Part shown: piece after piece, positions 1,650-7,069 of the stretch | Position numbering within the stretch: position 1 is the first letter of the stretch | Layout of the letters: every line of letters begins with the position of its first letter | Virus record (IMG/VR): IMGVR_UViG_2802429235_000002 | Span: 1-12,123 of that record | DNA: 12,123 bases | Strand: one strand, 5' to 3' | From: a virus | Lineage: Duplodnaviria > Heunggongvirae > Uroviricota > Caudoviricetes | Translations under genes and position numbers: made by a program | The notes under the pieces: model-generated | Told to the model about the DNA's origin: nothing | The model's database searches: none | What the model saw: the letters and a program-made list of their open reading frames with translations, nothing else

Positions 1650-1725
<76 letters not shown>

Positions 1726-3792: not shown

Positions 3793-3879
3793 ATGGAAAA
3801 CAACAAATCTGCACATTACGCTCCTTTTTTATCTGTAATACTTTTTGTTTTATGCTGTGCGTGGGCATTATTTTTATAA
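3793..3879 (+). CDS. Candidate small hydrophobic peptide (28 aa): MENNKSAHYAPFLSVILFVLCCAWALFL
   Basis: ATG at 3793 preceded by AAGGTGAG at about 7 nt; single predicted transmembrane helix; lies in an AT-rich ORF-free spacer. Not in the supplied ORF track because it is under 60 aa. Confidence 0.3.
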   Translation: MENNKSAHYAPFLSVILFVLCCAWALFL

Positions 3880-3985
3880 AAATATTTACAGATAAAATAA
3901 ACCCGCCAAAGCTGGTTAAGTGTGGGTGCGTTGAGGATGCATAATACATCAGAGGTGGCGAGGGATTTCTCCCTCGCCCGGTCTC

Positions 3986-4141
3986 TTACTCCTCAGGTTC
4001 GTAAGCTGTGAAGACAGCGACCTCCGTCTGCCCGGTTCGGATTCGTACCTCGCAGAGGTCTTTCCTCGTTACCAGTGCCGTCACAATGACGGTTAAACAG
4101 ATGACGATCAGGGCGATTAACATCGCCTTTTGCTGCTTCAT
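3986..4141 (-). CDS. hokD: Hok/Gef-family type I toxin (51 aa)
   Basis: MKQQKAMLIALIVICLTVIVTALVTRKDLCEVRIRTGQTEVAVFTAYEPEE matches the Hok family and, from memory, E. coli HokD/RelF. AAGGAG ribosome-binding site 9 nt upstream of ATG 4139-4141. An in-frame upstream ATG at 4198 gives a 19-aa N-terminal extension. Confidence 0.85.
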   Translation of the reverse strand: MKQQKAMLIALIVICLTVIVTALVTRKDLCEVRIRTGQTEVAVFTAYEPEE

Positions 4142-4352
4142 AGCCTGCTTCTCCTTGCCTTTCGGCACGTAAGAGGCTAACCTACATGTGCAAAGCATGA
4201 AATTGGCCTCAGATTAATGTTAAGCGTCTTGCCGGACGCGTAATGTTAACTGGGGCTTTTCTCTATCTGCCTTTGGTGTTCATGCCCGAGGCAGATAGCC
4301 TCAAGCACCCGCAGCAATTCTACTTAACTCCCGTCACCTCGCCAATATAAAA

Positions 4353-4442
4353 TCAATCAGAAAGGCGATCCATAAGAACAACAGCAAGACAATAAATTGC
4401 TATTACAGCAGCAATAGCCAGCGCACATTTGAGAACCAGCAC
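4353..4442 (-). CDS. Candidate small hydrophobic peptide (29 aa): MLVLKCALAIAAVIAIYCLAVVLMDRLSD
   Basis: Consensus AGGAGG Shine-Dalgarno 5 nt upstream of a GTG start at 4440-4442; single predicted transmembrane helix; sits between the hok gene and the 3' end of the NTPase gene. Under 60 aa, so absent from the ORF track. Confidence 0.4.
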   Translation of the reverse strand: MLVLKCALAIAAVIAIYCLAVVLMDRLSD

Positions 4443-4810
4443 GACAACCTCCTGTATTGGACGCACACCAGTCCTGATAAATATGAGGCTGTCTCGTCAG
4501 TGATTCAATACAACTATTGGGTATAGTTTATCTATTTTTTCTTTGGCAATGGAACACAACAGCCAAACATAACCAACACTTCTTCAGATGTATTAAGTCA
4601 GGCCCCAACCAGCATTTTGAGTAAGCAGTTCACTCAAATATGACTATCTGATTTGAGCGACGTGCGAACATTTACGATAGCTTCACTATGATTGATACAT
4701 TCTGCAATCTCTTTGTCTCAGAAAGTCGAAAGTAGCTTAAGCTATATTATCAAGAGGATAATCATCACATTGAAGGTCGATACGTTACCTTCAATGTGAC
4801 AATCTATTTA

Positions 4811-7069
4811 TTATTGAATTTGCAGGTTTGTACGTAAGGAACCTGTAGATTCCTCATATAACTTAGATATATAATTAGACATATCATGGTTACTTCGTAC
4901 TTTTTTATTGAATTTTTTCAGGTACTTATCAACCGTAGTGCTAAGTAGCCCTGAGTCGTCTGTAACGTGAGTTATCCCTAAATTAATCAAAACACCTAAT
5001 TTATTTTTTTCCACTAAGCTATCAAATGCGGATTTATCCCCGAGCTCATTCAGTGTTGATGCTATGAAGAAACGTGCATAATCAATATGTTCACCAATTT
5101 CCTCATATTGTTCAATTTGAACTGACAAGTCTTCCAAGGCAGATTTGAAAAAATCATATGCGTAATTGTTACTTAAACACTTTGTGAAAATACAAAGAAG
5201 AGCTACTGGTGAAAACTCCTTCAGCGGGATGTCGGTATTTCCCTTGAGAATATCAACATATAATTTACCTGCATCTATATATGATAAAAGGACTCCCCTC
5301 GTTATTTTTTTATACGGAGTTAGATATGAAGCCAAATAAAAAGAACCGTTATAAAATAACCTTAAAAATCTTGTTTTATCGTTACTAGGTTTAAGTTCAT
5401 TAATTTTATCAATAAGATATTCATTGTCTCTTAACAAACCAAAATAGAAGAAATAACTATTTGCCCAATAAATATCATAAATATTATCATTTATGTCTAT
5501 TAGGCCACGCTTCCTAAGTCCTTCAGCGTAAAAATACTCCATGAATGATCTGTGTAGAAATGAGAACGTATTACTTCTAACATTAACTGTTGTTACTTCA
5601 CTGCGATAAATTAGTCTTTTGAAAAGTTTGTCCTCATCAACATTCAAGTTTCTTTTGGCCAAATAATTTAAAAACATGTCCTGCACTTCTGAAATTGATA
5701 TGCAGTTTAGAGAGTTATCCATCATAAATATCGCAATTTCTACTAATATATTACTTATTACATCATATTCTGTTTGCGATAATAATCCCTTAGATGTATC
5801 CCATCGTCCCAATACTATCTCACTGTATTTTGAGTATAGTTCTGTCATTGTAGATGGTAATTCTTTAATCTCATCAGAGAGTATTCTTGCCAGAAGAATA
5901 GCGCTCACTGGAGTCCTGGGAATGAACTTAAATAGTGGTGTTTTTTCTATACCATTTTTAAGTTTATTTGTTATTTTAATGTCATTGCAGATTTTATCTA
6001 CAAAGTCGATTATTTGACCTGTGCTAAGTGGTATTATCGAGTATCTTGCAAACATCTGATCGATAACTTCATAGTCCTGAAGAGAATCCATAATTCTTGA
6101 AGCAACTAGTAATCGAATTTTATCATTCCTGGATACTTTCTCTACAATGTCCCTGAAGTTGTTTTGCCTTTCCTCAAGTGATTCCTTTACTTCATCCACC
6201 GAATCAACAATTAATAAAATATTCCCATCATGTTGTATTTTGTACTTACTTAACACACTTTGTATTATATTTTCAACATTAAGTTTTTTTTCTAGAACAT
6301 CCTTGTATTGACAAAATACTGGAAGGATGTAGTCTTTTTCGTAAGAATATTCTTCTTTTATTTTTCTAATTAACTGTTTCAGCAAAGTACTTTTCCCAGA
6401 GCCAACGGTTCCCTCTAAAAAAATAAATCTCTCGGCTCTCACAACACTATACAGTTTTAACGGCCTGTGTCTGCGTTTTTTATGATCTTCCTTGCTTACA
6501 TATCTATCAATAAGGTTATTTATGCCAACACTACCAAAAAAAGAGCTTTCAGGTGTATCACTTATGGTTTGCAATGTATCTGTTAAGTATTGTTCATAAT
6601 TAATGGATTCGAAATCCCAAAACTCTGGGTAATATTTACTGATTAAAGAACATATTTTTTCACCCTCTATAAATTTTATATTTGTAGATTTGAATTTCAA
6701 GTAAATTTTTTCTTGAGCATTATTTGAGATCGATGAATTAGTAATAACCCAAATTTCATTCAAATGTATGTTCTTAGAGCCAGAAGAAATAAAGCGTGGA
6801 TATAATTGACACTCTTCTATTTGTCGTTCAACCTCACTATTTGACTGAATTATCTTTCCAACTTTACAAATAACACCAATATATATTTCCTCGTCTAATG
6901 CCTCATCTCGTTTAATTATGACAAAATCAGCACCTTTTTCTGATGGTCCTTGCTTATATTCAACATGTGTAACAGTCGGCAAACGTGGTAGAAGCGCTCT
7001 TGGCACTGGATGGAAATCATCAACCTCACGTTGCAATGATTCTATTTTTCTTAAGTATTCTGGTTTCAT
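4811..7069 (-). CDS. NACHT/STAND-type P-loop NTPase, NLR-like (752 aa), with an unassigned N-terminal domain and helical C-terminal region
   Basis: Walker A GTVGSGKST (codons at 6386-6412); Walker B LLIVDSVDE (NACHT-style hhhhD-x-x-DE) followed by LLVASR, resembling the NACHT sensor-1 hhhTSR motif. About 205 aa precede the P-loop and about 270 aromatic-rich residues follow the NTPase core. AAGGT ribosome-binding site 7 nt upstream of ATG 7067-7069. The gene is conspicuously AT-rich compared with its neighbours. Confidence 0.8.
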   Translation of the reverse strand: MKPEYLRKIESLQREVDDFHPVPRALLPRLPTVTHVEYKQGPSEKGADFVIIKRDEALDEEIYIGVICKVGKIIQSNSEVERQIEECQLYPRFISSGSKNIHLNEIWVITNSSISNNAQEKIYLKFKSTNIKFIEGEKICSLISKYYPEFWDFESINYEQYLTDTLQTISDTPESSFFGSVGINNLIDRYVSKEDHKKRRHRPLKLYSVVRAERFIFLEGTVGSGKSTLLKQLIRKIKEEYSYEKDYILPVFCQYKDVLEKKLNVENIIQSVLSKYKIQHDGNILLIVDSVDEVKESLEERQNNFRDIVEKVSRNDKIRLLVASRIMDSLQDYEVIDQMFARYSIIPLSTGQIIDFVDKICNDIKITNKLKNGIEKTPLFKFIPRTPVSAILLARILSDEIKELPSTMTELYSKYSEIVLGRWDTSKGLLSQTEYDVISNILVEIAIFMMDNSLNCISISEVQDMFLNYLAKRNLNVDEDKLFKRLIYRSEVTTVNVRSNTFSFLHRSFMEYFYAEGLRKRGLIDINDNIYDIYWANSYFFYFGLLRDNEYLIDKINELKPSNDKTRFLRLFYNGSFYLASYLTPYKKITRGVLLSYIDAGKLYVDILKGNTDIPLKEFSPVALLCIFTKCLSNNYAYDFFKSALEDLSVQIEQYEEIGEHIDYARFFIASTLNELGDKSAFDSLVEKNKLGVLINLGITHVTDDSGLLSTTVDKYLKKFNKKVRSNHDMSNYISKLYEESTGSLRTNLQIQ

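Follow-up and report, generated by a model that had tools for sequence, protein, structure and literature searches.

Features of the locus

The window analysed here is a stretch of 12,123 nucleotides from a virus of the Caudoviricetes (IMG/VR record IMGVR_UViG_2802429235_000002). Its minus strand carries, at about positions 4345-3894, what is almost certainly an intact hok/mok/sok type I toxin-antitoxin cassette of the hokD/hokW subgroup, located in a Rac-like prophage of Escherichia coli (Table 1). The features by which the hok/sok family is recognized in sequence were found at this locus, the Sok RNA and its promoter as predictions, and the relBE-hokD arrangement was not. An earlier note on this DNA had placed the locus at 3986-4330; the locus is real, but this interval is too short at both ends, leaving out the hok -35 box (4345-4340), the fbi element (3936-3924) and the terminator-like hairpin (3917-3900).

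The 51-aa Hok-type ORF that had been claimed is present, stop codon included (4141-3986), and its product matched Pfam PF01848 (HOK_GEF) over profile positions 1-42 of 42 with 82.9 bits (cut-off 22; E = 1.2e-23). The profile describes small Hok/Gef toxins (about 50 aa) that have a transmembrane helix at the N-terminus, and the product of the window is of this kind. It is 100% identical to HokD of E. coli K-12, and 47 of its 51 residues are identical to those of HokW. The AAGGAG ribosome-binding site was also found as described, at 4156-4151, 9 nt 5' of the hok ATG. The upstream ATG at 4198 is indeed in frame with hok and opens a 70-aa ORF; it is, however, the start of the mok leader ORF and not an alternative start of hok. 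The mok ORF has its own Shine-Dalgarno (SD) sequence, GAGG, and runs through the SD and start codon of hok. Only one difference from MokW of phage 933W occurs among its first 19 residues, and the mok/hok ORF matched PHROG 251 'MokW-like host killing' (E = 6e-33).

The predicted hok promoter appears weak. Its -10 box and the sequence downstream are conserved with 933W, and the homology ends upstream of the -10 box. A promoter and terminator scan found this promoter and detected neither the Sok promoter nor either terminator. The 5' end of the hok mRNA, GGGTGCTT, is invariant across 24 aligned loci. The leader (4310-4136, minus strand) matched the Rfam family RF01794 'sok' over the full model (1-157) with 115.8 bits (gathering score 59; E = 2.3e-26). 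Taken by its strand, this match would place Sok on the minus strand; that placement was rejected, because the RF01794 model is mRNA-sense, its consensus ending in the SD and AUG of hok, so the match marks the hok leader and not the Sok strand.

Table 1. Features of the hok/mok/sok cassette in the window, with strand, sequence and basis of assignment
Feature	Position	Strand	Sequence	Basis or remarks
Predicted hok mRNA promoter	4317-4345	-	-35 TTGGCG (4345-4340), 17-nt spacer, -10 TAGAAT (4322-4317)	Consensus scan, 9/12 matches
Predicted full-length hok (mok-hok) mRNA, about 417 nt	3894-4310	-	5' start GGGUGCUUGAGG	Rfam match begins at 4310; both ends inferred
tac (translational activator element)	4299-4310	-	GGGUGCUUGAGG	Predicted to pair with fbi in the full-length minimum free energy (MFE) fold and with ucb in the 3'-trimmed fold
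5' hairpin (9-bp inverted repeat)	4263-4298	-	CTATCTGCC/GGCAGATAG	Helix 2 of the 24-locus alignment
ucb / anti-SD	4252-4258	-	AAGCCCC	Predicted to pair with mok SD (full-length fold) and with tac (trimmed fold)
mok SD	4207-4210	-	GAGG	8 nt 5' of mok ATG; invariant in 24 loci
mok leader ORF, 70 aa	3986-4198	-		In frame with hok, as in MokW and MokC
dcb	4173-4177	-	GCCUC	Predicted to pair with mok SD in the fold of 4310-3954
hok SD	4151-4156	-	AAGGAG	Conserved in family alignment
hok toxin ORF, 51 aa	3986-4141	-	MKQQKAMLIALIVICLTVIVTALVTRKDLCEVRIRTGQTEVAVFTAYEPEE	Pfam PF01848, E = 1.2e-23
Perfect 9-bp hairpin after the stop codon (I3, helix 18)	3957-3978	-		95% of cells paired, 3 pairs changed on both sides
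fbi (fold-back inhibition element)	3924-3936	-	CCUCAACGCACCC	Complementary to tac with one bulged C
Weak terminator-like hairpin	3894-3917	-	AACCAGC-UUUG-GCGGGUU, then UAUUUU	Not called by the terminator scan
Predicted Sok promoter	4155-4183	+	-35 TTGCCT (4155-4160), 17-nt spacer, -10 TAACCT (4178-4183)	Homology to sokW
Predicted Sok antisense RNA, about 71-73 nt	4190-4260	+		Coordinates transferred by alignment from the sokW feature of AF125520

Predicted folding of the hok mRNA

The leader had been described as structured, and besides the Rfam match this was borne out by the fold of the 417-nt transcript (4310-3894), whose MFE of -165.7 kcal/mol corresponds to z = -7.1 against shuffled sequences. 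Together, the Pfam, Rfam and folding values go far beyond what chance would produce. In the predicted full-length fold, nucleotides 1-11 (tac) pair with fbi and thereby close the whole molecule, while G101, G103 and G104 of the mok SD pair with C59, C57 and C56 of ucb. A trimmed RNA (4310-3954), cut just past the perfect 9-bp hairpin located 3' of the stop codon, was also folded. In this in silico structure tac pairs with nucleotides 53-59 (ucb), and the mok SD lies in a hairpin with dcb, whose loop CUUUGCA comes just after the mok AUG. The predicted folds thus reproduce both conformations published for the hok mRNA of plasmid R1 (PMC9841398). By analogy with the R1 model, the hairpin after the stop codon is likely the protective 3' stem-loop of the trimmed mRNA (PMC9841398).

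Both repeats noted earlier in the leader were recovered. The 9-bp inverted repeat CTATCTGCC (4263-4271) and GGCAGATAG (4290-4298) is nested in a longer, imperfect inverted repeat of 21 nt, and the duplicated element TAATGTTAA occurs at 4215-4223 and 4241-4249. They are known structural elements of hok mRNAs: the former is the 5' hairpin next to tac, and the latter belongs to the Sok-target/Sok-terminator hairpin.

The predicted structure was compared with an alignment of 24 diverged cassettes (70-94% identity to the window) from Escherichia, Shigella, Kluyvera, Pseudocitrobacter, Erwinia and other Enterobacteriaceae. With the MFE structure of the window itself as reference, which favours that structure in the slid control, 84.7% of cells were paired, versus 39-45% when the partner was slid by 1-3 columns. 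Twenty-nine pairs were changed on both sides, and the observed covariation score was reached by none of 500 shuffles. Such double changes include five in the Sok-target/terminator hairpin, three in the hairpin after the stop codon and two in the 5' hairpin, in which 94% of cells were paired. The ucb-SD pairs (helix 5) were invariant in those sequences having letters there. In the tac-fbi helix of 12 pairs, 97.9% of cells were paired in the 24 loci, versus 35-52% when slid. Most of these pairs are invariant, and the sole double change, G-C to A-U in five sequences of the Kluyvera group, is probably a single event, so that covariation support for this helix is thin.

The mok ATG was kept in 23 of the 24 aligned loci, the exception being locus L031 with ATA. 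The frame of mok relative to hok varied among them (alignment A3; loci L011, L026, L029-L032, L015, L017 and L052): mok is in frame in the window, in 933W and in the hokC types, is in the +1 frame in the Kluyvera-group loci and L011, and is a 19-codon ORF in a few others. This variability agrees with the published conclusion that it is the act of translating mok across the hok SD that counts, and not the mok product (PMC9841398).

A separate observation concerns the Tyr47 codon of hok (window 3998-4003, minus strand), where the surrounding UACGAA is invariant in all 24 aligned hok loci. It was reported that A-to-I editing by TadA recodes Tyr to Cys in hokB, with a similar phenomenon in hokC, hokD and hokE (bioRxiv 10.1101/2025.08.07.668861).

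The predicted Sok antisense RNA

An antisense RNA had been suspected on the plus strand within 4140-4330, and a Sok RNA there appears to be the best-supported reading, sokW of 933W aligning to 4190-4260 on that strand. The predicted RNA consists of 9 unpaired 5' nucleotides, a long hairpin whose arms are the two TAATGTTAA copies, and a U-rich tail, CUUUUCU (-30.2 kcal/mol, z = -4.7). The loop of the target hairpin in the hok mRNA is complementary to these unpaired 5' nucleotides. The sequence is therefore consistent with a cis-encoded antisense RNA that has its own promoter and overlaps the translation initiation region of mok.

The Sok promoter region (4155-4189) and the body of the RNA (4206-4260, 55 nt) are 100% identical to sokW of 933W, and the first 16 nucleotides (4190-4205) show seven differences from SokW. 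Because of these 7 differences in 16 positions, data on SokW transfer to the Sok of the window by homology only. The -10 box TAACCT agrees with the consensus at 3 of 6 positions, which counts against full function, and was missed by the generic promoter scan; the same sequence is found in sokW. Since the scan missed it, the promoter was assigned from its homology to sokW and from a published mutant, the promoter-less sokW of Takada et al. (PMC8621323), in which the sokW -10 region is altered (primer YO-421).

Known relatives and genome context

Alignment to hok/sok and relBE-hokD loci, the check that the earlier note had suggested, gave 93% DNA identity to hokW-mokW-sokW of the Stx2 phage 933W and Sakai prophage Sp5 (AF125520) over 418 nt (about 4331-3913 in the window), and homology to K-12 only from about 20 nt before the hok ATG. 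In a megablast search, the 471-nt region had matches in 4727 of 5426 complete E. coli genomes, with at least 80% of the query covered by one copy in 3922 of them. Near-identical E. coli copies are labelled hokD by PGAP. Among phage records, 79 matched the region, with annotations such as hokW/mokW/sokW (933W, VT2-Sakai), 'MokW protein', 'HokD toxin' and similar.

The homology with 933W spans from the -10 box to just past fbi. Both phages share an in-frame mok of 70 aa, and tac, fbi, the hok SD, the Sok promoter and the Sok hairpin are identical; both cassettes lie on lambdoid prophages. They differ in the Sok recognition tail, which also covers codons 1-3 of mok (7 of the first 16 Sok nucleotides), in four C-terminal residues of the toxin (TAYEPEE versus VDYESEK) and in the sequence downstream of fbi. 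Their positions in the phage also differ: the window cassette lies in the nin region beside a NACHT gene, whereas that of 933W is near the right end.

The chromosomal locus hokC/mokC/sokC (gef) likewise has mok in frame, with a Mok-Hok product of 69 aa, and the same tac and fbi sequences as the window. However, its DNA identity to the window is about 74%, its Sok hairpin is shorter, and it belongs to the chromosomal core genome rather than to a prophage.

The hok/sok (parB) locus of plasmid R1 contains the same parts and the same predicted switch as the window (tac/fbi, ucb/mok-SD, tac/ucb and SD/dcb; PMC9841398), and R1 Hok is only 44% identical to HokW (PMC8621323). The layout of the Sok promoter, overlapping the hok SD region, is alike in both. 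The Sok-target hairpin of the window has a 16-nt insertion relative to the Rfam consensus, and the R1 locus is borne on a plasmid, the window cassette on a prophage. The frames of mok and hok coincide in the window but not in R1. In a plasmid search in distant mode, R1-type hok loci were too diverged for DNA alignment and only about 47 nt matched; the comparison with R1 is therefore based on the published model and the Rfam consensus.

In a genome 99.6% identical at the locus, the context is a Rac-like prophage with, in order, sieB, ydaF, repressor/cro-like HTH genes, ydaT, ydaU, ydaV, DUF1627, a DUF977 pseudogene, the NACHT gene, hokD, DUF1367, DUF1364, DUF1133, lysis genes and trkG. The hok gene is co-directional with the rightward phage genes, and the cassette lies in the early/nin region. 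In the window, tandem tRNA genes, tRNA-Gly(UCC) at 1572-1646 and tRNA-Thr(UGU) at 1650-1725 (minus strand), are located downstream of the DUF1133 Q-like gene.

A co-resident copy of the cassette in E. coli ECMA0423 (locus L006, 1033-1450) has lost tac through mutation of its 5' end, which reads GACTGCATGTGG and not GGGTGCTTGAGG. This copy is probably decaying.

Neighbouring reading frames

Directly upstream of hok, at 4811-7069 (minus strand), lies a gene for a STAND NTPase of 752 aa. Residues about 213-331 matched NACHT and residues 576-741 matched NCH1 (NACHT C-terminal helical domain 1, E = 1e-38), with no domain match in the first ~200 residues. In a search with PADLOC (2023), Hok matched no family and the NACHT protein gave only weak matches to HerA and mad8, so that a named defence system is not supported. 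The gene appears to be a bacterial NLR-type defence candidate that is carried by the prophage and inserted beside the DUF977 pseudogene.

Between this gene and hok, a small, conserved ORF of 29 aa (4353-4442, minus strand; VLVLKCALAIAAVIAIYCLAVVLMDRLSD) begins with GTG after a CAGGAGG SD and encodes one predicted membrane helix. Its end is separated from the hok -35 box by 8 nt, and the ORF listing gives the frame as 4353-4466. A diverged variant of 34 aa (MSDDISLAMEGALAVIAVVGVYCLVVFLMDRLGN) with its own strong SD (AAAGGAGGG) occupies the same position in other prophages. Variable sites number 10, 6 and 16 at the first, second and third codon positions, respectively. Of 5426 E. coli genomes, 1705 contain the DNA of the small ORF, and in none of 30 sampled is it annotated; no match was found in Pfam or PHROG, or by tblastn against phage records. 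The plus strand has a hydrophobic ORF of 28 aa (MENNKSAHYAPFLSVILFVLCCAWALFL; 3793-3879) with the SD AAGGTGAG, which runs convergently to hok and stops 15 nt short of the hok 3' end. Of the loci retrieved, only the near-identical genome and three viral contigs contain this ORF, and no family match was obtained for it.

Integrity of the cassette

The cassette could in principle be a silent remnant, i.e., structurally complete and no longer expressed or toxic, as has been proposed for several chromosomal hok loci and for hokD of K-12. The nearest complete E. coli genome examined (strain CFSAN061771, 99.6% identical) carries a hok gene with ATA in place of the start codon ATG, plus the substitution V41A. 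These changes correspond to window positions 4139 and 4020 (8212 and 8331 in that genome's locus, L002), where the window has the intact consensus form. Ten further E. coli genomes are 99.6% identical at the locus. The ATA start and V41A mean that this prophage lineage loses hok function in some hosts, which speaks for a remnant; the copy in the window itself appears intact, in a lineage whose hok gene is sometimes disabled. Moreover, the 3' terminator hairpin after fbi is imperfect in the window, with an A.G mismatch at a place where the AACCCGC/GCGGGTT stem of K-12 and several others is perfect; this hairpin is absent altogether from 933W, which is functional. The remnant reading also draws some support from earlier work summarised in a preprint, according to which the chromosomal loci hokA, hokB and hokC did not mediate post-segregational killing (bioRxiv 10.1101/2025.08.07.668861).

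Against these points, the window copy retains the ATGs and SDs of both mok and hok as well as tac, fbi, ucb and dcb, and its Sok promoter is identical to that of the functional sokW. At every invariant column of the 24-locus alignment, the window has the conserved letter. The toxin is the same protein as K-12 HokD (RelF), which is toxic when overexpressed. Considering all of this, a silent remnant is very unlikely, and an intact cassette is much the better description.

The relBE question

The earlier note had presented the hok gene as lacking a relBE partner. This is true: no ORF of RelE or RelB size lies upstream, the longest minus-strand ORF between the hok leader and the stop codon of the NACHT gene (4811) being 37 aa, and the leader is of the hok/sok type and not relE sequence. 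It is not an anomaly, however, as a full leader is the usual state. Among 80 IMG/VR viral contigs with an identical Hok, mostly derived from prophages, 77 have a tac-bearing leader, two have relE upstream and one has another arrangement; therefore the lack of relBE is the common and complete state.

The hokD (relF) gene of the K-12 Qin prophage encodes a 51-aa toxin identical to that of the window, and its 3' UTR, fbi and terminator region are homologous. Each of the two genes belongs to the nin region of a defective lambdoid prophage and is followed by a DUF1367/YdfU-type gene. However, K-12 hokD lacks the hok promoter, tac, ucb, the mok start and sok, all of which the window has; relE sits there in K-12. 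The homology between the two begins at AGGAGAAGCAGGCT, some 20 nt 5' of the hok ATG, with the end of relE further upstream in K-12. Because it begins only there, K-12 is the form that lost the leader. Judged from these sequences, relBE-hokD of K-12 appears to be the derived, truncated form and the antisense-controlled cassette the common, complete one.

That hok in the window is the third gene (or a remnant) of a relBE-type operon, under control of a protein antitoxin rather than an antisense RNA, can thus be dismissed with near certainty: although the toxin is 100% identical to K-12 HokD, which is encoded directly downstream of relBE, the window has no relB- or relE-sized ORF upstream, the K-12 homology starts so close to the hok ATG that K-12 must have lost the leader, and the tac leader accompanies the identical toxin in 77 of 80 contigs, relE in only two.

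Proposed mode of action

For an antisense-controlled cassette, as this one is predicted to be, the following sequence of events could be expected. In the full-length mRNA, tac would pair with fbi and ucb would cover the ribosome-binding site of mok, so that this mRNA should be inert. Removal of the 3' end, including fbi, would switch the fold: tac would capture ucb, and the mok SD would move to a weaker hairpin with dcb whose loop carries the mok start codon. The convergent promoter TTGCCT-17-TAACCT would drive the Sok RNA of about 71 nt, with its 5' tail complementary to this loop. By analogy with R1 hok/sok and hokW-sokW, the short-lived Sok would bind the trimmed mRNA and block translation of mok, and hence the coupled translation of hok, and RNase III would cut the duplex of Sok and mRNA. 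When the supply of Sok stops, through loss of the element or prophage induction, Hok would presumably be made, enter the inner membrane, and depolarise or kill the cell.

The closest experimental counterpart is hokW-sokW. It was reported that HokW arrests growth and that this arrest is prevented by sokW when transcribed from its own promoter (Takada et al. 2021; PMC8621323). Mutation of the sokW -10 region restored toxicity, and sokW supplied in trans rescued growth, the protection depending partially on RNase III and Hfq (PMC8621323). Both hokW and sokW RNAs were seen on northern blots, and the latter was abolished by -10 mutations (PMC8621323). After mitomycin C treatment, sokW vanished and HokW then appeared in the inner membrane in a RecA-dependent manner (PMC8621323). 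Deletion of the hokW-sokW locus delayed lysis and halved phage release (PMC8621323).

By analogy, the likely pay-offs for the prophage are stabilisation of the element, and earlier lysis with higher phage release after induction, as was shown for hokW. Moreover, since hok has the same orientation as the early rightward operon and Sok would be transcribed against it, read-through after induction could interfere with the synthesis of Sok.

The hypervariable recognition segment

The segment 4205-4190 combines the 5' tail of Sok, the loop of the target hairpin and codons 1-3 of mok. In a small sample of 63 unique cassettes, all encoding an identical Hok and thus selected on toxin identity, its diversity was 0.327, versus 0.063 for the whole cassette and 0.000 for tac, so that no other part of the cassette comes near it in variability. 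Seventeen variants of the segment were found, and that of the window is rare (3 of 77 loci). The window and 933W disagree at 7 of 16 positions of the segment and at 0 of 90 across the remainder of Sok and the Sok promoter. Two genomes each contain three co-resident copies, all three differing in the segment; one other genome has two identical copies. The types of the segment include the window type, the 933W type and a CCCAATCT...CACAAAT type.

A tentative suggestion, which we consider possible though somewhat doubtful, is that the segment is a specificity determinant under diversifying selection, and that the Sok 'alleles' of prophage cassettes sharing one toxin are mutually orthogonal. If this is true, several cassettes could reside together in a cell without the Sok of one silencing the hok of another.

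Significance for the family

The hok/mok/sok cassette of the window is an ordinary copy of a known module, whose close relatives have already been annotated and tested; the hokD/hokW subgroup is annotated in 933W (AF125520) and has been experimentally characterised since 2021 (PMC8621323). Nothing new is added by it to the mechanism of hok/sok. Its use is for annotation and for the view taken of the subgroup. RefSeq marks only the hokD CDS in near-identical genomes, and the locus would best be labelled hok/mok/sok (hokD/hokW type) with a Sok RNA on the plus strand. The comparison also corrects a K-12-centred assumption on the linkage of hokD with relBE.
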